Shown here one piece after another: positions 3,105 through 63,100 of a DNA stretch of 64,000 bases. Made by a program: the position numbers and the translations under genes. The DNA is from Aquificaceae bacterium (GTDB taxonomy: Bacteria; Aquificota; Aquificia; Aquificales; Aquificaceae): positions 14,385 through 78,384 of the forward strand of contig JBKBHW010000002.1 in assembly GCA_046297555.1 (NCBI GenBank), in the 5' to 3' direction. Within the stretch, counting starts at the first letter, position 1, and each line of letters opens with the position of its first letter. The notes under the pieces were generated by a model. It was not told where the DNA came from and searched no databases. It saw only the letters and a program-made list of their open reading frames with translations.

Positions 3105-3391
3105 TACGCCGGGTGAGAAATTATCTTTTGGTGGATGTTTAATATCTCAAAGGGCGTCTTCATAGCAAAGGAAGAAGAACCACATTCCTTAGATCTATTG
3201 CGTAGCAGTAGGTAGCGCGGGCATCCTTGCCCGCGATCTTTGATTGATTTTTTTCACAGGTAATAGCCTTTGCCACCTTTCCTTAAACTACGAGAGCGAA
3301 AAAGAGCCCTTATGTTATTGCGCAAGAAGTTTAACGGATAGGCGTCTCATAAACCATCCCTATAAAGGTTGAATTTCTCACCCAGCGCATA
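3105..3391. mobile_element. Non-autonomous MITE-like element with inverted termini and an internal REP doublet (most complete copy)
   Basis: TACGCCGGGTGAGAAATT at 3105-3122 and inverted AATTTCTCACCCAGCGCATA at 3372-3391. Inside: hairpin GTAGCGCGGGCATCCTTGCCCGCG (3212-3235), a decayed partner (3255-3276) and the AAAGAGCCCTTATGTTATTGCGCAAGAAG module. A third decayed terminus lies at 3410-3426. Confidence 0.7.
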
Positions 3392-3467
3392 GTTTTTAAG
3401 TGTAAAGAATATGCCGTGAGAAATTCAATAAACTTCTTGCATAATAAGGTATACCCCGTTATAGAGT

Positions 3468-6260
3468 TCATGCTTGAATTTTTTCCCTTTCCGCCAGTAC
3501 TTTCCTCAGATACAGCCCCGTGTAAGAGTTCTCCCTTTGGGCTATCTCCTCCGGTGGTCCCACTGCCACTACATAACCACCCCTTTCTCCTCCCTCCGGA
3601 CCAAGGTCTATAATCCAATCTGCGCTTTTTATAACATCAAGGTTATGCTCTATGACCACTACCGTGTTTCCTTTGTCCACAAGCCTCTGTAGTATGTCTA
3701 TAAGCTTTTTCACATCGTCCATGTGAAGGCCTGTGGTGGGCTCGTCCAAAAGGTAAAGAGTCCTGCCCGTTTCCTTTTTAGATAGCTCTCTTGAAAGCTT
3801 TATCCTTTGGGCTTCTCCACCAGACAAAGTGGTGGCTGGCTGACCAAGTTTTATATAGCCAAGGCCTATATCCTTTAAAAGCTGCAGCTTCCTCCTTATG
3901 GTGGGTATATTCTCAAAGAATTCGTAGGCTTCGTCCACCGTCATATCAAGCACGTCCGTTATGTTTTTACCCTTATAAAGAATGTCAAGGGTCTCCCTGT
4001 TGTACCTTTTGCCCTTACATACATCACAAGTCACATACAGGGGTGGTAAAAAGTGCATCTCCACCCTTATCACACCCTCACCCTGACAAGCTTCACACCT
4101 TCCACCTTTCACATTGAAAGAAAACCTTCCGGCGTTGTAGCCCCTTGCCCTTGCCTCGGGGGTCTGGGAAAAGAGCTCCCTTATATGGTCAAAGACCTTG
4201 GTGTAAGTGGCTGGGTTTGACCTTGGAGTCCTTCCTATGGGGGACTGATCTATGTTTATAACCTTATCAAAGTGTTCAAGGCCCTCTATGCTATCAAAGC
4301 CTTCCACTTCTGCATTGCCCCCATAAAAGAGAGCCCTGCTGTACTCCCAAAGGATATCGTATATGAGGGTAGATTTACCACTACCAGAGACTCCAGTGAT
4401 GCATACAAAGAGACCAACTGGAATTTCCACCGTAATATTCTTTAGGTTGTGCTTTTTTGCCCCCACTATCCTAAGCCATTTATCTTTGGGTTTTCTCCTT
4501 TTGTCTGGCACTGGTATGGAGAGCCTTCCCGAAAAGTAGGCGCCGGTAAGGGACCGCTCATCCCTTAGCATGTCCTCAACCCTTCCTTGAAAGACTACCT
4601 CACCACCCTTCTTGCCCGCCCCCGGACCCATATCAACCACCCAATCTGCGCTTAATATGGTCTCCGGGTCGTGTTCCACCACTATAACCGTGTTGCCAAG
4701 GTTCCTTAGATCCTTAAGGGTGTTTATAAGCTTTTCTGTGTCCCTTGGATGCAAGCCTATGGAGGGCTCATCAAGCACATAAAGAACTCCGGTAAGCTTA
4801 GAGCCTATCTGTGTGGCAAGCCTAATACGTTGCATCTCACCCCCAGAAAGGGTGGTGGCGCTGCGAGCAAGGTTTAGATAATCAAGCCCCACATTTATGA
4901 GAAAGCTAAGCCTGTCAGAAATTTCTTTTATCAACCTTTCCGCCACTATAAGGCTCTTGCCCTCAAGCTTGTAAGGAAGCTTATCAAAAAACTCCTTTGC
5001 CGACCTTATGGGCATACAGGATATTTCCCATATGCTTTTTCCATCCACAAGCACAGAAAGAGCCTCTGGCCTAAGTCTGGCACCGCCGCACTCAGGACAA
5101 GGCTTTTCCCTTATGAACTCCGATATCTCCTCCCTCAGCCTTTCTGACTCTTCTTCCAAAAACCTCCTCTCCAAATGCTTTACTACACCTTCAAAGCTTC
5201 CCCCGTCAAGGGAACCACCATAGAGCAAAAAGCTCCTTATTCCGCTGGGTAGATCCTGCCATGGGGTCTTTGGGTTGTATCCCAGTTTTCTCAGTATGTT
5301 CATTATGGGGTATTTTAGGTACTCAAAAAAGGAAGATTCAGTTATCCTTATGGCGTCCACCGCCGGCTCCCTTTCGTCTATTAAAAGCTTTACATCCACC
5401 TCCCATTTTACACCCAAGCCCTTACAGGCCGGACAGGCACCGTAGGGGGAGTTGAAGGAAAAAAGCCTTGGGGAAAGCTCTGGAATGGAAAAGCCATGAT
5501 CTGGGCAGGTTAGCCTCTCGCTAAAAATTTCTTCCCTTTGAGTATCCACCTCCTCCACCTTCAAAAGACCCTTGGACAGCTCAAGGGCCTTCTCTATGGC
5601 TGTAAGCAGCCTTGCCCTCTCTTCTTCATCAAGGGTAAGCCTGTCTACCACTAAATCCACATGGTGCTTTTTGTTTTTGTCTAAAGGTGGCACCTCAACT
5701 ATCCTCATATATTCCCCATCCACCTTTACCCTTGAAAAGCCCATCTTATCAAGCTCTTTAAACAGCTCCTTAAACTCACCCTTCTTGCCCCTAACCAAGG
5801 GAGACAGCAAGCTTATGCGCTTTCCTTTGTACTTTTCCCAGACCTTTTCCAATATTTCATGGGCTGAAAGCCCTTCAAGCAACCTTCCGCACTCTGGACA
5901 ATGGGGCTTTCCTATGTTTGCCCAAAGGACCCTCATATAGTCGTATATCTCCGTTACGGTGCCAACGGTAGAACGTGGGTTTTTGGAAGTGGTTTTTTGA
6001 TCTATCGCTATGGCTGGAGATAAACCCTCTATAATATCCACCTCTGGTTTTTCCATAATGCCAAGGAACTGCCTTGCATAGGAAGAGAGCGATTCTACAT
6101 ACCTCCTTTGCCCCTCCGCATATATGGTATCAAAGGCAAGGGAGGATTTGCCAGAGCCAGAAGGTCCGGTTATAACCACAAGCTTGTTCTTTGGTATATC
6201 AAGGTTTATGTTTTTTAGATTATGCTGACGGGCACCCCTTATTATGATCTTGTCGTACAT
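3468..6260 (-). CDS. uvrA: Excinuclease ABC subunit A
   Basis: Two ABC ATPase modules ([18 protein letters not shown]; [16 protein letters not shown]; LDEP), zinc-finger Cys pairs, 930 aa. Confidence 0.99.
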
Positions 6261-6296
6261 GCTCCACTTCTGACTGTGTTATAATTTAGGAAAAAG

Positions 6297-6917
6297 ATGG
6301 AAAAAATTCAAGAGATTGTGGCAAGGCTTGAAAAGGTCTTTCCAGACAAGATAGAGCTGAATTTTTCTAACCCGCTTGAACTACTTGTGGCGGTGGTGCT
6401 TTCAGCCCAAACAACAGACAAAAAGGTAAATGAAGTTACACAAAGCCTCTTTAAAAAGTACAAAAGCTGTGAGGATTACCTAAGGGTTCCCATTGAAGAG
6501 TTGGAAAGGGATATAAGCTCCATAAACTACTACAGAAACAAGGCGAAGTTTATAAAGTCTGCCTGTCAAAAGATTGTGGAAGAGTTTGGGGGTAGGGTGC
6601 CAGATAGGATGGAAGACCTTGTCAAGCTCCCGGGCATAGGAAGAAAAAGCGCCAACATAATCCTTTATAATGCCTTTGGGAAAAAGGAGGGCATAGCGGT
6701 GGATACTCATGTGGCGAGGGTAAGCCAGAGGCTTGGACTTACCCAAGAAAAAAAGCTAGAGAACATAGAAAGGGACCTTATGGAGCAGGTTCCAAGGGAG
6801 CTTTGGGGCAAGTTTTCAAACCTTTTCATACTTCTTGGAAGGTATATATGTACGGCTCAAAAGCCAAAGCATTTTGAATGCCCCCTATATGACCTTTGCC
6901 CCTCAAGGGAACTATGA
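6297..6917 (+). CDS. nth: Endonuclease III (HhH-GPD Fe-S DNA glycosylase)
   Basis: LSAQTTD, Hh[17 protein letters not shown], and C-terminal Fe-S motif C-x6-H-x2-C-x5-C. Confidence 0.95.
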
Positions 6918-7747
6918 TAGGTGTGGTTGGTGGAAGCGGCCTGTACAAGCTTGAAGGCTTTGAAATAGTAGACAAAATCAAGGTAAGGACACCCTTTGGA
7001 GACCCCTCCTCTCCCGTGGTAATGGTAAATGTGGCAGGGAAAAAGCTCTTTTTCCTCTCCAGACATGGAGAGGGACACACCTACCCACCCCATCTGGTTC
7101 CTTACAAGGCAAACCTCTGGGCTTTTAGGGAGCTGGGCATAAAAAGGGTAATAGCCATATCGGCGGTGGGGGGCATAAACAGGAAGCTTTCACCGGGAGA
7201 TTTTGTGGTGGTGAATGACCTTTTGGACTTTACAAAGAAGAGAAAGGACTCCTTTTATGAAGGCAAGTTTTCCCTCCCTGTAGATGGTGAGGATAAGGTG
7301 GCAAGGCTTTTAAAGGGGGGTAAGGTGGTCCATATAGACGCCACGCAGCTCTACTGCCCACAGATGAGAAGGGTTATGATTGGAGTACTTGAGAGGCTAA
7401 AGCTCCCTTACCATGCCTCCGGCGTCTACGCCTGCACGGAAGGTCCAAGGTTTGAAACACCTGCGGAGATAAGGATGATAGAGAGGTTGGGCGGTGATGT
7501 AGTGGGTATGACGGGCTATCCTGAAGTTGTCCTTGCAAGAGAGCTTACCATGTGTTATATGAGCCTTTGTGTGGTGGCAAACCCGGCAGCGGGCATTGCA
7601 GGCTACCGTCTAACAAGCGAGGAGGTTATAAACCTTATGAAACAAAAGGAAGAGGAGATAGGAAGGGTTCTTGCCGAGTTTGTAAAGGAATTGCCAGAGG
7701 AAAGGGACTGTGGATGTGAGAAGATTTTAGATGGTGCAGAGGTTTAA
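6914..7747 (+). CDS. mtnP: Methylthioadenosine/methylthioinosine phosphorylase (PNP/MTAP family)
   Basis: [33 protein letters not shown] motifs. Start at 6914 overlaps the nth stop (ATGA). Confidence 0.88.
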
Positions 7748-7790
7748 ACAAGGGCTTCCTTACAAACTTGCTTGTGTATTTAAAAATACT

Positions 7791-7970
7791 GCACAGGCAG
7801 GAGTGTCTGTGCTACATAGTCAAAAACAAAAATCATTCTCAAACATACGCCGGGTGAGAAATTGCTTTCTTAGGTTTTGTCTTCACATGTTCAAAATTTC
7901 ATAGTAGGGGCACGCCGCGGCGTGCCCCCACAAAAGGGAAAAAGAGCCCTTAGATTGTTGCGCAAGAATG
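7791..7970. repeat. REP/MITE-family repeat cluster
   Basis: Type-B REP in reverse (7791-7815), terminus TACGCCGGGTGAGAAATT (7846-7863), type-C REP GTAGGGGCACGCCGCGGCGTGCCCC (7904-7928), and AAAGAGCCCTT...GCGCAAGAA module (about 7940-7968), between convergent genes. Confidence 0.8.
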
Positions 7971-9311
7971 CTAATATATCCTTCTTATCTCCCTTCTGTA
8001 TGCCCGATAAAAGATAAGAGCCCTTAAGGTGGTTTCAAGGCTCATAAAGACCCAAGGTACCAATGGGCTATGGATAAACTTAAGCATCAAGAGGGAGGGA
8101 AGTATTCTAAAGAGCCAAAAGGAGGAAAGGTTTACAAGAAGGGGTATGTGGGTTTTTCCCATTCCCTTTAAAGAGCCCGAGAAGATGCTGGCGTAAGCCA
8201 TCTGGGGCTGGGACAGGGCAACTATGACAAGGTAATAGACCGCATAGCTAATAACCTCTTGGTCCCTCGTGAATATAAGAGAAAAATGGTGGGGGAAAAG
8301 GGCTATTAGAAGGCCTATAAGGCCCATTGTAAGGGCGGTAAAATGGGCGCTTATTCTTATTCCGTAGTCAAGGCCTTTGAAGTTTTTTGCTCCATAGTTT
8401 TGACCTGCAAGGGTGGTAGATGCCACCATCATCCCAAAGCCTATCATAAAGGATACACTTTCAACCCTTAGGCCTACTTGATGGGCTGCCAAAACCTTAT
8501 CGCCAAACTGGGCAACAAGTCCAACAAAAACATTAAAGGAAAGGCTTGTAAAGGCCCTTTCTATGGCGGTGGGGGTGCCAATCCGTAGCATTTTTAAAAG
8601 TAGCCTTCCATCAAGGTTTAGCATTATGGGAAAGGGCTTTTTACAGCGTACATAAAGGTACACATAAAAGAAAAGCCCTACTATCTCCGAGAGGGCTATG
8701 CCCCATCCTGCTCCCGCCACCTCAAGCCTTGGAAAACCAAGCTTCCCATAAATGAGCACATAGGCGCTGCTTATGTTTACCACATTCATCAAAAGGGCAA
8801 CTTTGAAGGGGGTTTTAGTATCACCGTATCCGTTGTAGCCCGCATAAAGGGTGTTGGTTATAAAGCCTATGGTTATAAAGAGAAAAACGGGATTAAGGTA
8901 TTCTTTGGCAAGGCTTACCACATCTTGGGAGGCACCAAAGGCAAGCATAAGATGGGCTATGAGGTCTTTGCCAAGGAAGGTAAGGGGAAGGGCTATTAAA
9001 AGAGCTATTATGATACCCCAAAGGAGGGCGGGGGAGGGGTCCTTTTTTGCTCCTACCCTTTGGGCCACCAGCACCGTGGTGCCCGTGTAGGCAAGAGCCA
9101 TAAGGGAATACACAAACCACAGCATACTGGCGGAATATCCAACGGCGGCAACGGCTGTGGCAGATATGCCAGACACCAAGATAATAGAAAAGGCGCTTTC
9201 CACCGTGTATAGAAGGTTTGAAAGCACAATGGGTAGGGCAAGCCTTAGCACCCTGTTTATAACCCTAAGCTTACCTTCCGATGGGTCTATAAGAAGCCCT
9301 CTACTTTGCAT
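7971..9311 (-). CDS. MATE family efflux transporter
   Basis: 446 aa, about 12 TM; GYGDTKTPF, GAGWGIALS, AAHQV and GQNYGAKN MATE motifs. Confidence 0.92.
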   Translation of the reverse strand: MQSRGLLIDPSEGKLRVINRVLRLALPIVLSNLLYTVESAFSIILVSGISATAVAAVGYSASMLWFVYSLMALAYTGTTVLVAQRVGAKKDPSPALLWGIIIALLIALPLTFLGKDLIAHLMLAFGASQDVVSLAKEYLNPVFLFITIGFITNTLYAGYNGYGDTKTPFKVALLMNVVNISSAYVLIYGKLGFPRLEVAGAGWGIALSEIVGLFFYVYLYVRCKKPFPIMLNLDGRLLLKMLRIGTPTAIERAFTSLSFNVFVGLVAQFGDKVLAAHQVGLRVESVSFMIGFGMMVASTTLAGQNYGAKNFKGLDYGIRISAHFTALTMGLIGLLIALFPHHFSLIFTRDQEVISYAVYYLVIVALSQPQMAYASIFSGSLKGMGKTHIPLLVNLSSFWLFRILPSLLMLKFIHSPLVPWVFMSLETTLRALIFYRAYRREIRRIY

Positions 9312-10047
9312 AAACTTTCATAACCCTTAGAGTTTTTTCATAGCCAAGCTTGTATATCTCCTCCGCCTTTGAAAGGCTAAGGAGTGAGTATTTTAAAAGG
9401 TCTGGTTCAATGACCACATGGCAAAGCTCCTTCCTTTTATCCACATTGGACCTAACCGCCAAAAGGAAACTCCTCACAAGTATGTGAAATATATTCCTTA
9501 TCTTTTCCACTTCTTCGCTTGGGTTTACATCTACACCAACAAGGATGCCCTCCATGGAGATTAAAGGCTCCACGGGAAGGTTGTTGGTAACACTACCATC
9601 TATAAGAAGGTACTCTTTGTACCTAATGGGCTCAAAGATGCCCGGCAGGGCACAGCTACCCAAAAGGATGGGTACAAGGTCCCCCCTATCAAAGTAAAAG
9701 GTTTTCCCGCTCTTTATATCCAAGGCTCCTATAAAGAGTCTTTTCTTTGCTTTTTCAACGTACTTTGTGGATAGCATTCTGTTTAAATACTTCTCCGCTT
9801 CCTTCAAAGAGATAAGGCCAAGCCTTGGGAGGGTAGGCCTTAGGTATTTTAACCATTCCCTTGATTTGACTATTCTTAGCATCTCCTCGGGTGTATAACC
9901 GTCGCAGTAAAAGGCTGCCACAAGGGCCCCCGCACTTACACCACTTATGGCAGATATTTCAAAGCCAAGCTCCTCCAGAGCCTTTATAACACCAATATGG
10001 GCTATGCCACGGGCCGCACCACCCGAGAGAACAAGATTAACCTTCAT
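9301..10047 (-). CDS. Patatin-like phospholipase
   Basis: LSGGAARG glycine-rich loop, GVSAG nucleophile elbow, DGS motif. Confidence 0.9.
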   Translation of the reverse strand: MKVNLVLSGGAARGIAHIGVIKALEELGFEISAISGVSAGALVAAFYCDGYTPEEMLRIVKSREWLKYLRPTLPRLGLISLKEAEKYLNRMLSTKYVEKAKKRLFIGALDIKSGKTFYFDRGDLVPILLGSCALPGIFEPIRYKEYLLIDGSVTNNLPVEPLISMEGILVGVDVNPSEEVEKIRNIFHILVRSFLLAVRSNVDKRKELCHVVIEPDLLKYSLLSLSKAEEIYKLGYEKTLRVMKVYAK

Positions 10048-10935: not shown

Positions 10936-11044
10936 AGCTATATTATACCACCTTTCTCCCTTATCATAGTTTAAGTTTATAGAGAGTAGTACAGACATTC
11001 TTACCTGTGCCTATGGCACAGAAAATGTTAAAATTTTATAAGTT

Positions 11045-11836: not shown

Positions 11837-12647
11837 TGTTGAGCTTTGGAAAAACTTGGTGGAAAAAAGGCTTAGAGAAATTCTTAGGTCCTTTGAGCCC
11901 CAAATCCTTTATGAGGCCATGTCTTATTACCTTTTTCAAGAAGGAAAGCGCATAAGGCCCCTTTTTCTATGCACCGTATGTAATGCCCTCGGTGGCTCTG
12001 TGGAGGACGCTATCACCGTAGGTTGTGCCGTTGAGATGGTGCATAACTATTCTTTGATCCATGATGACCTTCCGGCCTTGGATAACGACAGCTTTAGAAG
12101 GGGTAAGCCTTCCTGCCATGTGGCCTTTGGTGAGGATATGGCCATATTGGCTGGAGATGCCCTCCTTACCTATGCCTTTGAGGTTTTGGCCAATAAAGAA
12201 AACTTTAGGTCCTTGGAAGAGGGCCAACTCCTTTCTTTGATAGGCCTTTTGGCAAAGAAGGCGGGCTTTGAAGGTATGGTGGGGGGACAGGTTTTGGACA
12301 TAAAAAAGCTCTCAGACCAATGGGAGATCAGCCTCAAAAAGACAGCAGAACTCTTCTCCTTTTGCTTCCTTGCCGGTGGAATATTGGCCAAGAGATACGA
12401 CCTTTTAAAGGGCCTTGAAGATCTGGGCTTAAAGGTGGGCCTTCTTTTTCAGATGGTGGACGATTACAAAGACAAGGATGGCTTTTACAATTCCTTGGGA
12501 GATAGCCTTTTGGAAAGGGTGGAAGACCTTAGAAAAGAATGCTATCAAAGGGCCAAATCAATTGGGGTGTTTGTAGAAGAGTTTGAAGAGTTGCTCGCCT
12601 TGGTTGTTGGCGGAGGGGGAGGGATTCGAACCCCCGGTGGGCTGTAA
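11829..12647 (+). CDS. ispA: Polyprenyl (farnesyl/geranylgeranyl) diphosphate synthase
   Basis: GKRIRP, SLIHDDLPALDNDSFRRGKP, GGQVLDI, KTAELF, FQMVDD motifs. Confidence 0.9.
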   Translation: MSNVELWKNLVEKRLREILRSFEPQILYEAMSYYLFQEGKRIRPLFLCTVCNALGGSVEDAITVGCAVEMVHNYSLIHDDLPALDNDSFRRGKPSCHVAFGEDMAILAGDALLTYAFEVLANKENFRSLEEGQLLSLIGLLAKKAGFEGMVGGQVLDIKKLSDQWEISLKKTAELFSFCFLAGGILAKRYDLLKGLEDLGLKVGLLFQMVDDYKDKDGFYNSLGDSLLERVEDLRKECYQRAKSIGVFVEEFEELLALVVGGGGGIRTPGGL

Positions 12648-12698
12648 ACCCACTGGTGATTTCAAATCACCCGCCTTCGTCCACTCGGCCACCCCTCC
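12608..12698 (-). tRNA. tRNA-Ser(TGA), CCA encoded
   Basis: Reverse complement GGAGGGGTGGCCGAGTGG...GATTTGAAATC...long variable arm...GGTTCGAATCCCTCCCCCTCCGCCA. Confidence 0.96.
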
Positions 12699-12770
12699 AG
12701 ATGATATTATTATAAGCCGAAGTCAAAGGGTTAATAACTCAAAAAGTCTAAAAATTCCCTTTAATATTTT

Positions 12771-13232
12771 GTTGTTCAGAAATTCAAGTTTATATGCTGG
12801 GTGAGAAATTCAAATTGTCCCTTGTGTATAACATAACAGCTCCTACTCCCTGCGTAGTTTCATAAAAGGTGGCACAGGCATCCTGCCTGTGCGAAGAGAA
12901 TCAATCAAAGGGCATGTGCAAAGGTGCCCGCTCCACCGACTATTAAATAATAGATCTAAGGAATGTTTCTTTTTCTTTTTTGTAGGGGCACGCTGCGGCG
13001 TGCCCCTACCACGGAATTCTTTATTTTCGCACCAAAGTTGTTCAGAAATTCAAGTTTATTCAGCAAAGTCTTTGGCAACCATAAAGGTTTTACCTACGAT
13101 ATATAGTAGGGTGTGTTATGAGGTAATGCGGGCATCCATGCCCGCGTATTTTGATTAAATCTTTTTCCACAGGCAGGGATGTTTGTGCTACCCTTCATAA
13201 AAGGAAGGGGCTATGTTGCTATTATGCAATAA
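12771..13232. repeat. Complex REP/MITE cluster with a 23-bp direct repeat
   Basis: Terminus at 12793-12810; type-B REP 12869-12892; type-C palindrome 12982-13009; A+B doublet at 13123-13146 and 13168-13191; identical GTTGTTCAGAAATTCAAGTTTAT at 12771-12793 and 13037-13059. Confidence 0.85.
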
Positions 13233-13234
13233 AC

Positions 13235-13978: not shown

Positions 13979-14059
13979 AACATCCTCCTTTTTGAAAGCA
14001 ATTATAAAATAGGTTATCCCTTTTTGCAAGGTAAATAGAATAGTTTATTTCTTGTGCCA

Positions 14060-14270
14060 TACCACAGATGAGAAATTGTCTTTTGGGTAGATGTGTAATG
14101 CTTTTGATTTAGGTCCATTGCGTACGCGTAGCATTAGGTAGCGCGGGCATCCTTGCCCGCGCCTCTTGGTTAAATCTTCTTACACAGGCAGGATGCTTGT
14201 GCTACCTTTCATAAACTTAAACTACGGGAGGAAAAAAAAGAGCCTTTATGTTATCACGCAAGAAGTTTTA
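14060..14270. repeat. REP/MITE-family copy lacking the right terminus
   Basis: Decayed terminus 14060-14077, type-A REP 14138-14161, inverted type-B 14183-14205, AAAGAGCCTTTATGTTATCACGCAAGAAG module. Confidence 0.85.
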
Positions 14271-14280
14271 TATTTAAGCT

Positions 14281-14388
14281 ATGCCACATTTAACCCTTGA
14301 TATGTTACAGCTTTTAGAGGAAAGGCTGGGAAAGGAAGAAGCCAAGAAGGTGGCGGAGGCTATTCAGAAGGCTTTGGTGCACAAATAA
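14281..14388 (+). pseudogene. 35-aa remnant resembling the N-terminus of an Aquificae coiled-coil (DUF1640-like) protein
   Basis: Hand translation MPHLTLDMLQLLEERLGKEEAKKVAEAIQKALVHK*, with genome-typical codon usage inside an otherwise repeat-filled spacer. Family resemblance is from recall only. Confidence 0.45.
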
Positions 14389-14392
14389 AGAA

Positions 14393-14512
14393 GTCCTTGA
14401 TAGTAGCGCACTGCAGCATGCCTCTAAAAAAGAGGGGGAAAGAACCCTACCTTTGTCAAAAGAAGATGCCACGCCTATGCGGTGGTCTGAATCAAAAAAA
14501 TTTATGCACCAA
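14393..14512. repeat. ~110-bp dispersed repeat, copy 1 (copy 2 at 27147-27250)
   Basis: GTCCTTGATAGTAGC...CTTTGTC..A.AAGAT.CCACGC.TATGCGGTG.TCTGAATCAAAAAAATTTATGCACCAA shared with 27147-27250 apart from an ~20-bp indel. Confidence 0.75.
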
Positions 14513-14548
14513 CGCCCCCAGCGTGTGTATTAGTTTATAATATAAGGC

Positions 14549-20382: not shown

Positions 20383-20436
20383 GAAGTTGTCTTTAAAATA
20401 TAGGCTCCGGGCCACCCATAAAACTTTAAGAGAGTT

Positions 20437-20565
20437 AGCGAGGGTATCTTTGCCTGTGTTTTTGAGTTGTTGATTCTTCTATTATGTAGCACAGATATCC
20501 CTTTCTGTGTATGTTTTGAGCACACGGGCAAGAATGCCCATGATACACCTTATTATGAAATAAGT
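20437..20565. repeat. Decayed REP doublet cluster
   Basis: GTAGCACAGATATCCCTTTCTGTG (20486-20509) facing CACGGGCAAGAATGCCCATGATAC (20523-20546), followed by CCTTATTATG as at 35995; a further decayed hairpin at 20437-20458. Confidence 0.7.
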
Positions 20566-26964: not shown

Positions 26965-27056
26965 CTTATATCCATTGCTTAATATTAGGTAGTGTGGGCA
27001 TCCATGCCCGCGTCTTTTGGTTAAATTTTATGTAGCACAGACATTCCTGTCTGTGC
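26965..27056. repeat. REP pair in direct (tandem) orientation
   Basis: GTAGTGTGGGCATCCATGCCCGCG (26989-27012), the usual TCTTTTGGTTAAAT spacer, then GTAGCACAGACATTCCTGTCTGTGC (27032-27056) on the same strand. Confidence 0.8.
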
Positions 27057-27146
27057 GATAAGGAATCTAATAAAAACCTGCTATTTGTATACAAAGAGAG
27101 AGATCATCTCAGGACAAGAGATTGGCTTTAGTGCAGAAATAGAGAG

Positions 27147-27250
27147 GTCCTTGATAGTAGCCCGCTGTAGTATGTCTTTACAAAAGACTTTGTCCAAAAA
27201 AGATACCACGCTTATGCGGTGATCTGAATCAAAAAAATTTATGCACCAAA
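27147..27250. repeat. ~110-bp dispersed repeat, copy 2
   Basis: Homologous to 14393-14512. Confidence 0.75.
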
Positions 27251-27266
27251 ACCCGCCGAAGTCTTT

Positions 27267-35896: not shown

Positions 35897-36035
35897 CATG
35901 CTGGGTAATAATTTTTGAGTTTGACTATGTAGCATAGACATTCCTATCTGTGAAGTATTTTTTAAACACACAGGCAAGAATGCCTATGCTACGCCTTATT
36001 ATGCAAGAATCTTATTTAATTTCTCACCCAGCATA
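35897..36035. mobile_element. Short MITE-like copy with inverted B-type REP doublet
   Basis: Decayed left terminus CATGCTGGGTAATAATTT (35897-35914), REPs at 35929-35952 and 35969-35992, right terminus AATTTCTCACCCAGCATA (36018-36035). Confidence 0.7.
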
Positions 36036-36065
36036 AAGTGTTTTGTAGTCTATAATTTTATAGCT

Positions 36066-51369: not shown

Positions 51370-51674
51370 TACACGCCAGGTGAGAAATTACACCTTTGTA
51401 AAAAATAAACCTCTTGCGTGATAACATAAAGGCTCTTTTTCTTAAGGTAGCACAAGCATCCCTGCCTGTGAAAGAAAAAAGATTTAATCAAAAGACGCGG
51501 GCAAGGATGCCCGCGCTACCTCTATGGTTGCTCAAAACAAAGAGATAGAGCTTTGCCCACCCCTACCTATCTTATAGAACAAAAACTAATCATGCAAGAA
51601 GTTTAATAGTCAAAGATCGCAAGCGAGGATGCCCGCGCCCTATTCTCCATTAAAGAAAAAGAGAATTTCTCACC
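51370..51674. mobile_element. MITE-like copy (reverse orientation) with REP doublet
   Basis: Terminus 51370-51389, reversed AAAGAGCC module 51411-51440, type-B REP 51447-51470, inverted type-A 51496-51519, decayed A at 51618-51642, inverted partial terminus AATTTCTCACC 51664-51674 touching the DUF202 stop. Confidence 0.75.
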
Positions 51675-56593: not shown

Positions 56594-56615
56594 TTTTACA
56601 CCTCCTTAAAGTTTT

Positions 56616-57785
56616 TTATACAACAACCTTCCTTTCCTTCTTTATACCAAGAGCTTGGTATATCTTTTCCATGATAAGCTCTACGGGCAATGTCATGCCG
56701 CCGTAGACCCTTGGACCCCCTATAACTTTATCATTGTCTGGTATGGCCGCCCTTATTTCCTTTGCAAGCCAGCCTATTATGTTATGCTCCGGCACTATCA
56801 CAGCCTTTGCCTTTGAAAGGACCTCTCTTATTTCTTTTTCTGGGAAGGGTCTTATAGATTTAACTTTTACAAGGCCTACGTTTAGACCTTCAAGCTGGGC
56901 GTACCTTACCGCTTCCCTTCCTTGGGCTGCGGCGCATCCAGAAGCTACCACAAAAACTTCCGCATCTGGGTTGACAACTTCTATAGGTCCTCCAAGGTAC
57001 TTGTATATATACTTCATAGCTCTTATGTTAGAAGCCCAAACCTCTTGCTGCCATACAGCATGTATCAGATAGCTCATAAAGTTGGATTTTTGCACTGGTG
57101 CATCCCTTTGGATCCTTGCCGGTGGGATCTCACAGTCGGTGGGCGGCACAGGTGCCTTGTAAGGGTCTCTTGGTGGAAGCTTCATATCTTCGGGTGTCAT
57201 GTTCACATAACCCTTGGCGTGAGTAACAAAGAAGCCCTCAGTACATACCGCTACCGGTATGTATACATCAACCATCTCCGATATGATAAAACCTGCAAGG
57301 GTAAAGTCAAAAACATCCTGTTGGTTTTCGGCATGTAAAACCACAATGCCAGAGTGTAAAAGGTATGCAATTTCTACATTGTCTGGCTGTATGGAAAGAG
57401 GTGCGTTAACCACTCTTGTGAGAACTCCAAGCACCGCAGGTATTCTGTGTCCGGGCCAAGAGGCTATGGCTTCCATGCCTCTCAAAAGCCCAGGACCGGA
57501 GGTAGCTGAAAAGGCCCTTGCCCCTCCTCTTACCGCCCCCGCTATAGCCGACATGGCACCGTACTCCTCCTCCGCTCTATAGTAATCCCTTAAGTAGCCT
57601 TGTGCCCATATATCCCCCACAAGGTGCATAACTTCCGATTGGGGAGTGATGGGATAGGCTATGGCTATATCCACATTGGCACGCTTTACGGCCTCTGCCA
57701 TAGCTTGGGCACCCGTTATAAACTTCCTCTCTCTGGGTGCCTCCAAAAGAAGGTAATCGGCATCTACAACCTTTTGTTCTGGCAT
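56616..57785 (-). CDS. forA: 2-oxoacid:ferredoxin oxidoreductase alpha subunit
   Basis: AYPITPQSE, EEEYGAMS, ATSGPG, RPFP. Confidence 0.82.
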   Translation of the reverse strand: MPEQKVVDADYLLLEAPRERKFITGAQAMAEAVKRANVDIAIAYPITPQSEVMHLVGDIWAQGYLRDYYRAEEEYGAMSAIAGAVRGGARAFSATSGPGLLRGMEAIASWPGHRIPAVLGVLTRVVNAPLSIQPDNVEIAYLLHSGIVVLHAENQQDVFDFTLAGFIISEMVDVYIPVAVCTEGFFVTHAKGYVNMTPEDMKLPPRDPYKAPVPPTDCEIPPARIQRDAPVQKSNFMSYLIHAVWQQEVWASNIRAMKYIYKYLGGPIEVVNPDAEVFVVASGCAAAQGREAVRYAQLEGLNVGLVKVKSIRPFPEKEIREVLSKAKAVIVPEHNIIGWLAKEIRAAIPDNDKVIGGPRVYGGMTLPVELIMEKIYQALGIKKERKVVV

Positions 57786-57801
57786 GGCACTACCTCCACT
57801 T

Positions 57802-58515
57802 TTATTCCGTTTCTGTTACATGCTCTCCCCTTCTGGGGATCAAAAGATAAGAATATTCACCATAGTCAAGTACAGAAAGGGTTTGATACTCTTCCTTGGG
57901 AAGGGATGGGTTTTCTGGTGGAAGCTTGGGCTCCCACTTTATTCCAAGCTCTTCCCTCACTTGGACAAGCACATCCCTAAACCTTCTGATCTCATCGGCA
58001 TGGACATCTCTCAAAGATACCATGGCATCCTCGTGGCCAAGCTCACCGCACAGGGCTATGGTAAAGCAGTTGGTACCAGCCCTTATCATCCTAAGGGATA
58101 GGTTTGCATAATGACAATGTACTCCCACAAAAATACACGCCTCTATCTTGTTGTGGAGGATAGTTAGGTTGGGATGGTTTGGGTTTATTTCTGCCTCTGG
58201 GTCTATTTTGGGATACTTGGGCCTGTAGTCGGGCATAGGTATGATCCTACAGTTGGGTATTTCCATGGCAAGTTCAAGGACGGCCTTTGCCTTTTCCATG
58301 GCGCTTGCGTTCCAACCCCACAAGACTAAAGGACCCGGGAATATGGTAGGATTTCTTCTTGTAAGTAAAGCCTTTGCGGCTTCTCTCATTGCTGTTTCTT
58401 CATCCACTATCTTTCCATAAAGCAGTGCCTTTCCGGGTGGTGGCAATTCAACACCTTCAAAGGCTGCTGGTGTTGGCATATAGCCCGTAGGACCTGGTAA
58501 AACTTCCATTGGCAT
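57802..58515 (-). CDS. forD: Delta subunit of the Aquificae five-subunit 2-oxoacid:ferredoxin oxidoreductase (probably 2-oxoglutarate:Fd oxidoreductase)
   Basis: NPTIFPGPLVLW, EINPNHPNLTI..NKI, GVHCHYAN. The gene order D-A-B-G-E-F matches the for (OGOR) operon rather than porEDABG. Confidence 0.78.
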   Translation of the reverse strand: MPMEVLPGPTGYMPTPAAFEGVELPPPGKALLYGKIVDEETAMREAAKALLTRRNPTIFPGPLVLWGWNASAMEKAKAVLELAMEIPNCRIIPMPDYRPKYPKIDPEAEINPNHPNLTILHNKIEACIFVGVHCHYANLSLRMIRAGTNCFTIALCGELGHEDAMVSLRDVHADEIRRFRDVLVQVREELGIKWEPKLPPENPSLPKEEYQTLSVLDYGEYSYLLIPRRGEHVTETE

Positions 58516-58595
58516 GCCTTACCTCCTTTAGAATAGGTTATTAAAAAATTAGCATGAGCTTAAATAGTGTCAAGGGGAAAATGGTATGATAAAAG

Positions 58596-58784
58596 TCATT
58601 TTTCCTTCCCTTTATCTTCCAATTCTTTTATCCTTTTTTCCCTCATCTCCTCGTACTTTGGTCCCACCTTCTTGTACACCTTATCTGCTATGAGGGCGAT
58701 GATGATAAACAAGGGCACTCCTATGATTACCATAATTAGTAAAAGCTTTCCAAAGAAGACCAGCAAGTTGATCAAGTTCTCCAT
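58596..58784 (-). CDS. Small single-pass membrane protein (62 aa)
   Basis: Hydrophobic N-terminal helix and charged tail; ATG 1 nt after the leuS-beta stop. Confidence 0.6.
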   Translation of the reverse strand: MENLINLLVFFGKLLLIMVIIGVPLFIIIALIADKVYKKVGPKYEEMREKRIKELEDKGKEK

Positions 58785-58785
58785 G

Positions 58786-59649
58786 CTACACCACCAAGTT
58801 TAAGAGTTTGTTCTTTATAAATATTACCTTTTTTATTTCCTTGTCCTTTAGCCACTGGCTTATCTTCTGGTCCCTTAGGGCTATTTCCTTTACCGTATCC
58901 TCTTGCGCATCCACGGGTACCCTTATAACACCTCTAAGCTTACCGTTTATCTGCACGGGGATCTCCATCTCTTCCAAAAGCAGGGCTTTTTCATCGGGCT
59001 TTGGAAAGGGATAAAAAGGCATTAACCTTTCATACCCAAGCCTTTGCCATAGCTCCTCGCATATATGGGGGGTTATGGGATATAGCATAAAGAGGATGGT
59101 TTCAAGGGATTCTTTTAAAACCTTGTAATCTTTCTCCTCCTTTGGTTGGAATTCTTGCAGGGTGTTTAAAAGCTCCATTATACCAGCTATGGCGGAGTTA
59201 AAGGAGAGGTCCTCCATACTTGCCAAGTATCTTTTTAGCGTTTGATGGGTTTTGTATCTTATGTTTTTTGCCTCCTGAGGAAGGTCGGAAAAGTCTTCCC
59301 TTGAGTAAGTTATACCCCTTATCTTGTCAAGGTGTTGATGGAAATAGCTCCAAAGCCTTCTTAAAAACCTGTAAGCTCCTTGGACCCCTTCCTCCGTCCA
59401 CTCAAAGTCCTTTTCCACAGGGCCTGCAAAGAGTATATAGAGCCTTATGGTGTCAGCACCATACCTTTTTATAACCTCTTCTGGGTCCACTGTGTTCCCC
59501 TTAGATTTGGACATCTTGGCAGACTCCCCTATCTTTGCCTCCAAAGCCCTTATGTACTCCTCCCTTTCCAGCCCGAGCTTGTTTAAAAGAAGATAAAAGT
59601 TGTCCCCTATGCTAAGGTTGTTCTCCTTTAAGAATTCCATAACCTTCAT
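58786..59649 (-). CDS. leuS: Leucyl-tRNA synthetase beta subunit (split LeuRS)
   Basis: AKMSKSKGNTVDP, YGADTIRLY, FNSAIAGIMEL, PITPHICEELW, VQINGKLRG, no HIGH domain. ATG 59649, 287 aa. Confidence 0.93.
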   Translation of the reverse strand: MKVMEFLKENNLSIGDNFYLLLNKLGLEREEYIRALEAKIGESAKMSKSKGNTVDPEEVIKRYGADTIRLYILFAGPVEKDFEWTEEGVQGAYRFLRRLWSYFHQHLDKIRGITYSREDFSDLPQEAKNIRYKTHQTLKRYLASMEDLSFNSAIAGIMELLNTLQEFQPKEEKDYKVLKESLETILFMLYPITPHICEELWQRLGYERLMPFYPFPKPDEKALLLEEMEIPVQINGKLRGVIRVPVDAQEDTVKEIALRDQKISQWLKDKEIKKVIFIKNKLLNLVV

Positions 59650-59673
59650 AAGAAATAATATTAAAGCAAAGGA

Positions 59674-59933
59674 TACGCCGAGTGAGAAATTCAACCTTTA
59701 TAGGGATGGTTTATGAAATGCCTATTCATTAGATTTCTTGCGCGATAACATAAGGGCTCTTTTCCCCCTCCCGTAGTTCAAGTTTATGAAAGGTAGCGCA
59801 GGCATCCCTGCCTGTGGAAAAAGATTTAACCAAAAACGCAGGCAAGGATGCCCGCGCTACCGACTTTGGTGTATAAACTTTTAATTCATGTAGCCTTCCC
59901 TGTCCTTCGGGCGACCTTTATGGTCGCCCCTAC
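59674..59933. mobile_element. MITE-like copy (reverse orientation) with REP doublet and a type-D REP
   Basis: Terminus 59674-59691 plus ~85 bp matching the reverse complement of about 3297-3385; type-B 59793-59816; inverted type-A 59837-59860; GGGCGACCTTTATGGTCGCCCCTAC at 59909-59933. Confidence 0.8.
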
Positions 59934-59996
59934 ATTTTCCTATTCAAAAAAACTAAAAGCAAAGGATGTAATATATTAATCACATGGAGGTATGCA

Positions 59997-60833
59997 ATGG
60001 GTGAAGTATCGCTTCTTATAGCCTTCAGCGCTGGTATTCTCTCCTTTCTTTCTCCTTGCGTTTTGCCCATAATACCGGGCTACATTTCATACATATCTGG
60101 TGTGGGAGCACGGGAGGTCAAAGAGAGGGGAGGCTTTAGCTGGGGTGTTTTTACCGCATCACTTCTTTTTGTTATAGGGTTTTCTGTAGTGTTTACGCTT
60201 ATGGGGGCAACTGCCACGGGAATTGGCGGATTGCTAAGAGAATACCAAGATTACATAGCCAAAGTGAGCGGTAGTGTGGTAGTCTTCTTCGGTCTACACT
60301 TTGCCGGCCTTATGTTGAGGCAAAACTTTTTAAAAGAGCTCTTGGGAGTTGCTTCTCTCTTTTTAGCTCTATTTCTATTCGGCATCATCTCACAAAAGCT
60401 GCTTTTTGACCTGCTTGGCATATTACTAATGGTGTCCTTCTTTTACCTTTTTGGTTTACATGATGCCCTCTACAGGCAGATGAGGAAGGAAATAAGAGGG
60501 AACCTTACGGGTATAGGTGCCATGCTTGTGGGCATTTTCTTTGCCTTTGGGTGGAGCCCTTGTATAGGTCCCGTGCTTGGATCCATACTCCTTTATGCAA
60601 GTCAACAAGAAACAGCCCTTCAGGGTGCTGCCTTACTCTTTGCATACTCCCTTGGCCTTGGCATACCCTTTTTGATAGCCGGCGGCTTCCTCTCTGCCTT
60701 CCTCGGCTTTGTGCGTAGGTTTAGCAAGCTCTTTGGAATAGTGGAGATAGTGGGCGGCCTTCTTCTTATTTTGCTTGGCTTTTTGATAACAACGGGCAAG
60801 CTGGCTGAGATCTCCTCAATACTTGGAGGCTAA
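59997..60833 (+). CDS. ccdA: Cytochrome c biogenesis protein CcdA (DsbD transmembrane domain)
   Basis: AFSAGILSFLSPCVLP and FAFGWSPCIGPVLGSIL, AYSLGLGIPF. Confidence 0.92.
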   Translation: MGEVSLLIAFSAGILSFLSPCVLPIIPGYISYISGVGAREVKERGGFSWGVFTASLLFVIGFSVVFTLMGATATGIGGLLREYQDYIAKVSGSVVVFFGLHFAGLMLRQNFLKELLGVASLFLALFLFGIISQKLLFDLLGILLMVSFFYLFGLHDALYRQMRKEIRGNLTGIGAMLVGIFFAFGWSPCIGPVLGSILLYASQQETALQGAALLFAYSLGLGIPFLIAGGFLSAFLGFVRRFSKLFGIVEIVGGLLLILLGFLITTGKLAEISSILGG

Positions 60834-61449
60834 GCCTTTGGATATACTTGTGGTAGATTATGGAATGGGAAATTTGAGAAGCGTTTCAAAGGCCCTTGAA
60901 AATGTGGGCTTTAGGGTCAAGGTAAGCTCAGAGGGTGAGGATATAAGGAGGGCCAACGCCATAGTTTTGCCCGGTGTGGGCGCCTTTAGGGATGCGGTTG
61001 AAAACCTAAAGAGGATGGGGCTTTACAGTGAGATAATAAGACATATTGAGAAGGGGAAGCCTTATTTTGGCATATGCCTTGGGTTGCAGCTTCTCTTTGA
61101 AAAAAGCTATGAGTTTGGGGAGTCGGAAGGCTTTGGTGTAGTAGAGGGGGAGGTAGTACTTCTTCCCACAAGTGTTAAAATACCACACATAGGCTGGAAC
61201 CAGCTCTGGAAGAAGAAGCCTTCTTCCATGCTTGAAGGTATAAAGGATGGAGAATACTTTTACTTTGTCCATTCTTACCATGTGGTACCTAAGAGGAAAG
61301 ACCTTATCCTTACCACAACCGACTACGGCATACACTTTGTATCTTCCATAGAATACGAAAACATCTTTGCTGTGCAGTTCCACCCCGAAAAGAGCCAAAG
61401 GGCAGGTCTTAAACTCCTTGAAAACCTTAGGAGGAGGCTTTATGGCTAA
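60823..61449 (+). CDS. hisH: Imidazole glycerol phosphate synthase glutamine amidotransferase subunit
   Basis: DYGMGNL, LPGVGAF, GICLGLQ, PHIGWN, YFVHSY, QFHPEKS. Confidence 0.97.
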   Translation: MEAKPLDILVVDYGMGNLRSVSKALENVGFRVKVSSEGEDIRRANAIVLPGVGAFRDAVENLKRMGLYSEIIRHIEKGKPYFGICLGLQLLFEKSYEFGESEGFGVVEGEVVLLPTSVKIPHIGWNQLWKKKPSSMLEGIKDGEYFYFVHSYHVVPKRKDLILTTTDYGIHFVSSIEYENIFAVQFHPEKSQRAGLKLLENLRRRLYG

Positions 61450-62113
61450 GCTTTGTATAGCCCTTGACACAAACCTTCCACAAGCTCTTGATCTTGTCAA
61501 GTCTTTAAGAGGTTATCCCTTGATCTTTAAGGTAGGATACAAGCTCTTTATATGCCATCACAGAGCAATAACGGATAAGGTAAAAGAGAATGGCTTTGAG
61601 CTCTTTTTGGACCTGAAGCTCCACGATATACCAAACACGGTAAAGGAGGGGGTTCTTTCTGCAAAGGATTTGGGCGCCGACTATCTTACCGTGCATCTTA
61701 GCTCCGGAAAAGAAGCTATGATACAAGCGGTAAGCTCAAAGGGAAAGCTGAAGCTCCTTGGGGTTAGCCTGCTTACAAGCCTTGAGGAAGAAGACTTAAA
61801 AGAGATGGGTGTATGCGTGGGAAGGGAGGATTATGTAATGGGCCTTGTAAAAAAGGGTGTGGAGTGGGGCTTAGATGGCGTGGTATGCTCAGGTTATGAG
61901 GCTCGGACGATAAGGGGAAAGGTGCCCCCGGGGTTTCTTATAGTGGTGCCGGGTATAAGGCTGGAGGGGGAGTCTAAGGATGATCAAAAGAGGGTGGTAA
62001 GCGTTGAGGAAGCTCTTGAGTCTGGTGCAGATATAATTGTGATGGGGAGAAGTGTGCTAAGGGCAGAAAATCCTATAAAGAGAGTAGAAGAGATTCTCCT
62101 CAGGATCACATAA
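61442..62113 (+). CDS. pyrF: Orotidine 5'-phosphate decarboxylase
   Basis: IALD, FKVG, DLKLHDIPNT, VVPGIR, VMGRS. Start trimmed to ATG 61442. Confidence 0.96.
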   Translation: MAKLCIALDTNLPQALDLVKSLRGYPLIFKVGYKLFICHHRAITDKVKENGFELFLDLKLHDIPNTVKEGVLSAKDLGADYLTVHLSSGKEAMIQAVSSKGKLKLLGVSLLTSLEEEDLKEMGVCVGREDYVMGLVKKGVEWGLDGVVCSGYEARTIRGKVPPGFLIVVPGIRLEGESKDDQKRVVSVEEALESGADIIVMGRSVLRAENPIKRVEEILLRIT

Positions 62114-62756
62114 GGCCAATGCTTTTTAGCGCCTCCTGTCTTTGGAGACATGTGGCACATAGGCCGCAGGGAGGCTCCGTTCCCATATAGCAAGAGTAAG
62201 TCTTTTCAAAGGGTACGCCAAGCTCCTTTCCAAGCTTTGCAATATCCCTTTTACTCATTCCAAGAAAGGGGGCATACAGGCTTATCCTTCTCTTTGTTTT
62301 TGCCACATAAGCGGAGGCAGAGTTAATGGCAGATTCCATGGCAGTTATAAACTCCACCCTACAGTCTGGATAAGGCGTGTCAAGGGCATGCACTCCTATG
62401 GCTATATGGTCTATCTCATAGCTATCTGCCAAGGAGCCTGCAATGGCAAGAAATACAAGGTTCCTCATGGGTACGTTGGTGGGGGGCACCTCTTCGCCAT
62501 ACGGCCCCTGTGGCACTTGTGGCCCACCCTCCAAAAGGGCTGAGCCTTTGATAAGCTTGTAATGCGGCACTTCCACTACTATGTGCTCCTTCACATGGGC
62601 AAGCCTTGCCAGCTCCTTGGCGTACTTTAGCTCCACCCTGTGCCTTTGCCCATATTCAAAAGAGAGGGTGTAGACCTCTTCAAACTCCCTTTTACATAGC
62701 CACAAAAGGGTGGCGCTGTCCATTCCACCAGAGAGCAAGACTATAACCTTTCTCAT
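62106..62756 (-). CDS. queC: 7-cyano-7-deazaguanine synthase
   Basis: LLSGGMDS, FEYGQRH, VPMRN, YPDCR, TYSCY, CGLCATC. ATG 62756 (the ORF-track extension is the tRNA). Confidence 0.96.
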   Translation of the reverse strand: MRKVIVLLSGGMDSATLLWLCKREFEEVYTLSFEYGQRHRVELKYAKELARLAHVKEHIVVEVPHYKLIKGSALLEGGPQVPQGPYGEEVPPTNVPMRNLVFLAIAGSLADSYEIDHIAIGVHALDTPYPDCRVEFITAMESAINSASAYVAKTKRRISLYAPFLGMSKRDIAKLGKELGVPFEKTYSCYMGTEPPCGLCATCLQRQEALKSIGLM

Positions 62757-62759
62757 CCT

Positions 62760-62846
62760 TGGTGCCGGAGGCGGGAGTCGAACCCGCACGCCCTTGCGGG
62801 CGGGGGATTTTGAATCCCCTGCGTCTGCCAGTTCCGCCACTCCGGC
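62760..62846 (-). tRNA. tRNA-Leu(CAA), CCA encoded
   Basis: Reverse complement GCCGGAGTGGCGGAACTGG...GGGGA-TTCAAAA-TCCCC...GGTTCGACTCCCGCCTCCGGCACCA. Confidence 0.96.
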
Positions 62847-62873
62847 TAAGGATAAATTATATTATACTAATCC

Positions 62874-63100
62874 TACGCCGGGTGAGAAATTCAATTTTCG
62901 TAGGGCATCATTTTAGATGCTTGTTTAAAGGGAGCAATTCGCGAATTGTCCTTACACAAAATTTTTCATAATTTGTAAGGGCACGCCGCAGCGTGCCCCT
63001 ACCACGGAATTCTGGGCAAAACCTCTAAGCAGCGCGGGCATCCTTGCCCGCGATCTTTGATTAATTTTTTTCTACACAGGCAGGATGCCTGTGCTACGAC
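62874..63100. repeat. REP/MITE-family cluster
   Basis: Terminus 62874-62891, type-C palindrome 62975-63002, type-A 63029-63052, inverted type-B 63075-63097. Confidence 0.85.

Follow-up and report, generated by a model that had tools for sequence, protein, structure and literature searches.

Short GTAG-headed hairpins recur in the intergenic spacers of the 64,000-nucleotide (nt) stretch analyzed here (C2:14385-78384; hereafter the window), which belongs to an Aquificaceae assembly of 1,446,936 bp in 61 contigs with 44% G+C and 98% estimated completeness. These hairpins are repetitive extragenic palindromes (REPs) of a horizontally spread family that is associated with REP-associated tyrosine transposases (RAYTs), and they are arranged like bacterial interspersed mosaic elements (BIMEs). 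Approximately two-thirds of their arrays stand beside or between IS982-like termini, i.e., in miniature inverted-repeat transposable elements (MITEs) of 110-340 bp. The explanation that we regard as probable as a whole combines genuine REPs, a RAYT clade lodged in restriction genes, spread into intergenic DNA, dispersal in two layers, and an old population.

Our census located 23 hairpins in the window, distributed over the same ten spacers in which a preliminary description, made from the sequence alone, had reported about 25 palindromes of four types. At three mismatches or fewer, type A has seven matches (3212, 13123, 14138, 26989, 51496-, 59837-, and 63029), type B has three, type C has three palindromes, and type D has one; the four named motifs stand where they had been placed, and zero matches to them are expected from dinucleotide shuffles. 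That classification is incomplete, since two further types, E (GTAGCAYAGACATTCCTGTCTGTG) and F, were not named in it. Genome-wide, 391 hairpins are found at three edits or fewer (B, 145; A, 120; E, 73; F, 23; C, 22; D, 8), which corresponds to one REP per 3.7 kb of the 1.45-Mb genome. Although crude calls of open reading frames (ORFs) assign about 90% of the genome to coding sequence, 94% of these hairpins are intergenic.

Types A, B, E, and F, with the consensus GTAGCGCGGGCATCCTTGCCCGCG for A, GTAGCACAGGCATYCYTGCCTGTG for B, and GTAGCAAAGGCTATTGCCTGTG for F, constitute a single family, in which GTAG is followed by an 8-bp stem, a TYCY tetraloop (TTCT, TCCT, TTCC, or TCCC), and the return stem, according to the formula GTAG-C(R)(Y)(R)G(R)CA-TYCY-TG(Y)C(Y)(R)(Y)G. 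The classes are separated by compensatory changes at three stem positions. Among 45 distinct copies, five of the eight stem pairs are altered on both sides, a degree of covariation not reached in any of 500 shuffles, and 97.5% of the stem cells in the hairpin alignment are paired. The GTAG head is invariant in this alignment; when hairpins are detected without any head requirement, 268 of about 361 carry an exact GTAG on one strand, in agreement with the earlier remark that the palindromes are mostly GTAG-headed.

The hairpins are combined into a few fixed arrays, foremost the A→←B doublet, of which 43 are stand-alone. Altogether, 52 adjacent A+ B- pairs lie within 60 nt of each other at a median gap of 19 nt, consistent with the description of A facing B across a spacer of about 20 nt. 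Other arrays are E→←B (21), A→E→←B (19), A→←F (10), and A→E→ (9), together with single hairpins, while homotypic inverted doublets are absent among the arrays genome-wide. The A/B core covers about 75 nt (AGGTAGCGCGGGCATCCTTGCCCGCG-nCTTTTGnTTAAATCTTTTTA-CACAGGCAGGGATGCCTGTGCTACCTT), the A hairpin being followed by a short T run, and as single-stranded DNA the doublet folds into two independent stem-loops (z of about -6). An all-against-all BLAST comparison of 41 A/B loci with 200-nt flanks returned 711 core-spanning alignments, and because 70-80% of them stop within about 10 nt of the core edges, the doublet of about 70 nt is itself the main repeated unit; larger modules common to several loci exist but represent a minority. 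The doublets do not conform to the definition of a REPIN, in which the same REP occurs twice in inverted orientation and forms one long hairpin, since no homotypic doublet is present and the two stem-loops are separate. A single long hairpin of A with the reverse complement of B, held by G:U wobbles as in an RNA-level element, was also considered and is rejected on account of the two separate stem-loops and the lack of a gene-orientation bias.

Cognate RAYT in restriction-methylase genes

REPs are usually described as species-specific repeats maintained by one resident RAYT. They would be selfish repeats at the DNA level, the RAYT (TnpA-REP, a Y1 HUH nuclease) recognizing their single-stranded stem-loops with the 5' GTAG as a guide. 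Y1 transposases occur in 34 of the 121 genomes of the order, mostly as open frames of about 130-170 aa that cover the whole Y1_Tnp model, which we take to be the size of an ordinary IS200/IS605 TnpA. The general hairpin pattern is present in only five of the 121 genomes, with 278 matches in this genome, 41 in G089, 27 in G101, two in G053, and one in G081. The two matches of G053, a complete Hydrogenobacter thermophilus-like genome of 1,743,135 bp from a sister genus (named from 99%-identical proteins), enclose a weak Y1 match. This RAYT-like segment of about 198 aa contains the motifs RNLPHW, NHVHLL (HUH), and SYDHIV (Tyr), and its best NCBIfam match is REP_Tyr_transpos (NF047646; E 2.8e-19, 69 bits against a cut-off of 80); its closest relatives in a large protein collection are annotated as RayT.

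In G053, the RAYT is preceded by B-type hairpins (+) and followed by E-type hairpins (-), and the entire REP-RAYT-REP cassette lies in frame within a 1408-aa ORF for an Eco57I-like type IIG restriction-methylase (L015:3217-7443 = C1:290216-294442). A second B/E doublet is in frame near the 3' end of the same ORF (L015:7243-7312). The alleles P0128-P0132 (1112-1120 aa), which are 99% identical to the G053 protein over residues 1-494, lack the cassette of about 288 aa and have a different C-terminal specificity region. The presence and absence of the cassette among 99%-identical alleles indicate that it moves. Among about 140 homologues of the restriction enzyme, REP-encoded peptides occur in all eight RAYT-bearing alleles and in only three RAYT-less ones.

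No homologue of the G053 RAYT was found in any other of the 90 genomes of the family. The nearest homologues, P0002, P0123, and P0003, are 65-68% identical and reside on unrelated metagenome contigs, one of them at 31% G+C. Their flanking hairpins are GTAGCATAGACATTCTTGTCTGTG and GTAGCATAGACATTCCTGTCTGTG, letter for letter the E variants present in 7 and 17 copies in this genome, together with the B-type GTAACACAGGCATTCCTGCCTGTG. The same hairpins flank the RAYT at G053 and at loci L031-L037, and these shared flanks identify the hairpin family as the cognate REP of one RAYT clade. The earlier assignment of the hairpins to RAYT-associated REPs is thereby supported; the proposal of a multi-class RAYT/REP system in the lineage is supported only in part, no RAYT having been detected in this assembly (see below).

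The family is not confined to this lineage, the same 24-mer being spread across many phyla. An exact scan for GTAGCRCRGGCATCCTTGCCYGYG outside the phylum returned at least 111 stretches with 35-67% G+C. Among the matches listed are Calothrix (three genomes), Terriglobia, Bryobacterales, Verrucomicrobia, Sumerlaeota, Phycisphaerales, Gallionellaceae, Thiobacillus, Anammoxibacter, Marinifilum, Caldimicrobium, and others; again among the matches listed, the identical 24-nt REP (GTAGCACAGGCATCCTTGCCTGTG or GTAGCGCAGGCATCCTTGCCTGCG) is found in L038-L117, and the 24-mer is often paired with a second, different hairpin, AGGCTGGAAGCCT. One 24-nt hairpin common to Aquificaceae, cyanobacteria, Acidobacteria, Verrucomicrobia, and further groups, with its enzyme in restriction-modification genes, points to horizontal spread of REP and RAYT on a defense gene. 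This would be a cosmopolitan REP family whose cognate RAYT clade resides, together with its REPs, in frame within type IIG (Eco57I-like) restriction-methylase genes. We found no paper that gives these hairpins as REPs or that places a RAYT in frame in a restriction gene, nor any description of REPs in Aquificota; the text and supplements of Di Nocera 2013 (PMC3733652) hold no entry for Aquificae.

The preliminary description had considered heterotypic doublets unusual. This view is not upheld, since the left and right hairpins that flank the RAYT are of unlike types at both G053 and the homologue L031, and the BIMEs of E. coli are combinations of unlike REPs, Y and Z. The unlike flanks of the RAYT explain the heterotypic doublets by giving them a natural origin; the fixed arrays would mirror the two unlike ends of a RAYT cassette and would be equivalent to BIMEs or REPINs.

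The E. coli REP/BIME system with TnpA-REP (Nunvar 2010, PMC2817692; Messing 2012, PMC3479197; Di Nocera 2013, PMC3733652) shares several features with the present one, including a GC-rich imperfect palindrome headed on its 5' side by GTAG, extragenic copies in the hundreds, inverted mosaic arrays with fixed linkers (types Y/Z there and A/B/E/F here), and a cognate Y1 HUH enzyme flanked by REPs, which is seen here in relatives. However, the present assembly has no RAYT, and while the E. coli enzyme is free-standing, the cognate clade here sits in frame within a restriction gene; the 24-nt REP is common to several phyla rather than species-specific, and the arrays show no bias to the 3' ends of genes, most of them being located inside DDE-type MITEs. 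The REPIN-RAYT system of Pseudomonas fluorescens (Bertels and Rainey 2011, PMC3116915) resembles it in having an inverted REP pair with spacer as the replicating unit, sharp unit boundaries, and a patchy distribution among related species. Contrary to the doublets described here, which are always heterotypic with two stem-loops, those REPINs join two like REPs into one long hairpin, and no multi-copy master sequence is present here. A further parallel is provided by the in-frame REP-RAYT-REP cassettes themselves, since the same hairpins are present in G053 and in the allele family to which a truncated gene of this genome belongs, while here the REPs have been multiplied about 400-fold outside the host gene.

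IS982-like termini around the arrays

A second layer of repeats surrounds many of the arrays. A terminus motif of 16-19 nt, (ATA)CGCYGGGTGAGAAATT, occurs about 200 times and serves as inverted termini; its position weight matrix yields 214 matches compared with 7 in a reversed-sequence control. In 34 cases, two termini face each other 110-340 bp apart, as at 3104-3390 of the window. In the sister species G010, identical termini enclose an insertion sequence (IS) of 964 bp (e.g., L013:106-1080, contig C1), which is present in at least 13 copies with a constant spacing of 948 bp and contains a sole ORF of 282 aa. This ORF matches the IS982 model NF033520 weakly and below the cut-off (E 1.1e-6, 28.5 bits, cut-off 130) and has no Pfam match. 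No intact IS982-like element is present in this assembly, which contains only a frameshifted remnant of 755 bp (C8:15133-15887) and fragments. Since their termini are identical to those of the G010-type IS and they are small, the units of 110-340 bp are regarded as its MITEs. The preliminary description had seen the sequence of this layer and left its termini and MITEs uninterpreted. The 964-bp element may represent an undescribed IS982-like group of Aquificaceae; G041 contig ends and the contigs C13 and C36 of this genome terminate inside it.

The interiors of the MITEs are mosaics of recurrent modules, in which REP arrays occur in either orientation. The association of arrays with termini exceeds that of random spacer segments at every scale considered: a terminus is found no farther than 100 nt away for 57% of arrays and 24% of segments, one or more termini pointing inward occur within 250 nt for 64% and 23%, and termini on both sides bracket 19% and 5%. 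Compared with known IS982 elements and bacterial MITEs such as Correia/NEMIS (Delihas 2011, PMC3184786), the units are alike in being non-coding, 110-340 bp long, and AT-rich in their flanks, and in possessing inverted termini of 16-19 nt identical to those of an IS of about 1 kb with a DDE-type ORF. They differ in that the interior is a mosaic of REP modules and is not derived from the IS, and in the weakness of the transposase match (E 1e-6, below the cut-off).

A composite of both layers was also observed on a contig binned outside the phylum. On L117, a 35% G+C contig of a Caldimicrobium sp. metagenome-assembled genome, the interval 3150-3420 contains B+ A- A- A-, followed by the IS terminus AATTTTCTCACCCAGCGTAT as in this genome, and represents either horizontal transfer of the composite MITE between hot-spring phyla or a mis-binned contig.

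A proposed two-layer dispersal and its alternatives

The scheme that accommodates these observations begins within the restriction gene. The REPs would have escaped from it into intergenic DNA, where compensatory stem changes would have diversified them into A, B, E, and F. In a first layer, RAYT would have moved the doublet of about 70 nt by single-strand copying; in a second layer, a DDE transposase would have multiplied many of the arrays as cargo of MITEs. We put forward with more reserve the broader proposal that a REP family normally confined with its RAYT to type IIG reading frames broke out in one Aquificaceae lineage and was captured by the MITEs of an unrelated DDE transposon, thus gaining a second, RAYT-independent route of amplification and leaving a large, structurally conserved population that outlives the loss of both enzymes; this is possible, although it is the less secure part of the account.

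The population is old, without a recent burst, because no two doublets are identical: the 43 A/B doublets, 21 B/E doublets, and 19 triplets are all distinct (83 of 83), and the spacers differ by 0.30 per site. The system had been presumed active or recent, which these figures contradict. The sole near-identical MITE pair, C4:18925 and C4:20504, is 99.5% identical at a distance of 1.5 kb, and all others are at most 86% identical. The hairpins are less diverse than the spacers (about 0.07 against 0.30 per site, the hairpin figure being biased low by copy selection), as would be expected where only recognizable hairpins are copied. The REP expansion is found in three of the 25 species of the genus and is absent in G010 and G041, the closest by DNA among five relatives compared (about 86% identity).

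Several points weigh against this scheme. Movement by either enzyme is inferred, and no RAYT or Y1_Tnp was detected in this assembly, which is 98% complete and retains contigs as short as 501 bp (PF01797 at E<=1, and tblastn with the G053 RAYT), or in the remaining REP-rich relatives, G089 and G101; the REP-flanked RAYT on which the preliminary description had let the identification depend is that of G053. No RAYT was seen with a hairpin of type A, the class most conspicuous here, beside it. The REP-bearing restriction allele nearest to that of this genome, P0203, is devoid of RAYT. No presence/absence polymorphism of a REP or MITE is shown within the species; orthologous spacers compared with G010 and G041, which are too diverged, offered no clean empty site. 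A target-site duplication of the MITEs is not established: 18 of the 34 terminus pairs are flanked by TA...TA, but this TA is palindromic and could belong to the terminus, and two G010 IS copies lack a clear direct repeat. Finally, the strong conservation of the hairpins relative to the spacers could mean selection at the level of the host.

The objection from the lack of a RAYT loses force, since the restriction gene expected to host it ends with its contig shortly before the cassette site. Contig C16 (1490→3, minus strand) encodes the N-terminal 496 residues of an orthologous restriction enzyme, with 78% identity to the G053 protein and up to 85% to other alleles. The gene contains, at C16:817-842, a complete GTAG E REP in frame, read as VAQTFLSV, which is the only REP deep within a long ORF genome-wide and whose position matches that of the REP in P0170, an allele with a RAYT. 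The gene leaves the contig about 50 codons short of the cassette site seen in relatives, and its remainder, amounting to 1.9 kb or more, is on no other contig. The protein collection lacks a full-length version of this enzyme from the species, its best match being 85% identical. That the RAYT is located in the unassembled part of this gene is a real possibility, if short of probable.

From this follows the foremost alternative, namely that the genome retains a complete working system, with RAYT and REPs in frame in the missing 3' part of the C16 gene, still mobilizing doublets. The kinship of the C16 gene to the host-family alleles, its E REP at the site shared with P0170, its interruption ahead of the cassette site, and the fact that eight of the 11 REP-bearing alleles of the restriction family encode RAYT are all as this alternative would have them, as are the many perfect 24-mers that persist (20 A and 27 B copies being identical). 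The state of the population is not: no two of the 83 doublets and triplets coincide, and only one MITE pair exceeds 86% identity. An active REPIN population is said normally to have a multi-copy master sequence. Considering also the RAYT-less P0203, G089, and G101, we find continued mobilization conceivable but somewhat doubtful.

The second alternative holds that the hairpins are pure MITE cargo, captured once from a source with REPs and copied here only by the IS982-like DDE transposase, without RAYT ever having acted. It draws on the share of arrays with an inward-facing terminus within 250 nt, on G089, in which all five REPs examined lie in or beside the same terminal-inverted-repeat (TIR) MITE, on the Caldimicrobium contig, where A and B REPs accompany the terminus of this MITE, and on the lack of a RAYT in all three REP-rich genomes. 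However, 82 of the 227 arrays have no terminus within 250 nt, and the unit common to most copy pairs is the doublet, not the MITE. The mosaic interiors, with the doublet in either orientation and in differing module contexts, are likewise difficult to reconcile with simple cargo, and the in-frame REP within the restriction gene is a RAYT-type event rather than a MITE insertion. Amplification by the DDE transposase alone is therefore unlikely, while its participation in the second layer of the two-layer scheme is retained.

Host function is the least probable of the alternatives. Intrinsic terminators were rejected since the arrays are densest in divergent spacers, are randomly oriented, and show no convergent excess. 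In numbers, 80 arrays are located in divergent, 83 in tandem, and 24 in convergent spacers, with the highest density per kb in the divergent ones, and orientation relative to the genes is random in tandem spacers (e.g., A+B- in 8 same against 9 opposite). At the gathering threshold, Rfam recognizes only four tRNAs in the window and no family over the hairpins. Spacer type, random orientation, and the lack of an Rfam family disfavor both terminators and strand-specific RNA elements. More generally, structural elements under selection, such as terminators, mRNA stabilizers, or protein-binding sites, would account for hairpins much better conserved than their linkers, for the short T run after the A hairpin, and for the excess of G:T wobbles over A:C mismatches on the GTAG strand (100 against 31), much of which is supplied by a few amplified variants; moreover, REPs and BIMEs of E. 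coli have been co-opted for gyrase binding, IHF binding, and mRNA stability. Such a function, independent of mobility, is nevertheless very unlikely, given the lack of orientation bias, the preference for promoter-side spacers, the absence of the hairpins from 21 of the 25 species in the genus, among them the closest relatives compared, and the identical hairpin beside a RAYT in unrelated phyla.

A thermophile of 1.45 Mb with many REPs and no detectable RAYT bears on whether REPs can persist as orphans, on their possible maintenance by hosts or other elements, and on how RAYT-less REP genomes are to be read. With REP doublets lying inside the MITEs of a DDE transposon, the hitch-hiking of one mobile element on another becomes open to test in a concrete case. 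In practical terms, the repeats break short-read assemblies of this group and coincide with synteny breakpoints against the nearest relative compared. Near-identical contigs of other assemblies end 60-150 nt from the flanking genes, within the repeats, and collinearity with G010 breaks at the REP/MITE-laden spacers of the window (7748-7970, 12648-13234, and 14030-14548). Collinearity is preserved over one spacer only (3104-3476), where G010 and G041 have a small coiled-coil gene in place of the MITE of this genome.

Repeat features of the window

The repeat-bearing spacers of the window are collected in the table. The A-like and B-like coordinates of the triplet at 20434-20545 were taken by eye from the sequence, and the C-type palindrome at 7904-7931 is 28 nt long, the whole group to which it belongs being located between convergent genes. 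A decayed TIR near 14066-14080 stands beside the canonical doublet.

Table. Positions of REP arrays, palindromes, and IS982-like termini in the window
Feature	Coordinates	Strand	Components
Complete MITE	3104-3390		TIRs 3104-3122 (+) and 3372-3390 (-); inside, A+ 3212-3235, F- 3254-3276, module AAAGAGCCCTTATGTTATTGCGCAAGAAGTTT
E REP, solo TIR, and C palindrome	7791-7931		E 7791-7815 (-), TIR 7845-7863 (+), C 7904-7931
Mosaic spacer adjoining tRNA gene	12792-13191		TIR 12792-12810 (+), B+ 12869-12891, C 12982-13009, doublet A+ 13123-13146/B- 13168-13191
Canonical A→←B doublet	14138-14205	+	A 14138-14161, 21-nt spacer CCTCTTGGTTAAATCTTCTTA, B- 14183-14205
Decayed A→E→←B triplet	20434-20545	+	A-like 20434-20458, E 20486-20509, B-like (-) 20521-20545
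Direct A→E→ pair	26989-27055	+	A 26989-27012, E 27032-27055
E→←B doublet and TIR	35930-36036		E 35930-35952, B- 35968-35991, inward-facing TIR 36018-36036 (-)
TIR and doublet	51371-51519		TIR 51371-51389 (+), B+ 51447-51470/A- 51496-51519; decayed A-like near 51613-51637
TIR, doublet, and D REP	59673-59933		TIR 59673-59691 (+), B-like+ 59793-59816/A- 59837-59860, D 59909-59933 (-)
TIR, C, and doublet beside tRNA gene	62873-63097		TIR 62873-62891 (+), C 62975-63002, A+ 63029-63052/B- 63075-63097

The tRNA genes at 12611-12698 (-) and 62763-62846 (-) directly abut two of the most repeat-laden spacers. A second repeat family, with termini GGCTTYGGTGCAYAAAT, is present in the window at 14380-14525 and 27130-27262 and at the ends of contigs C1, C2, C4, C6, C7, and C11. 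It comprises a MITE-like unit of 148 nt (k-mer copy count 24) and a unit of 77 nt (16), with longer copies at many contig ends. A small coiled-coil ORF starting at 14272 is cut short by the 148-nt unit at about 14380; G010 and G041 retain this ORF intact.

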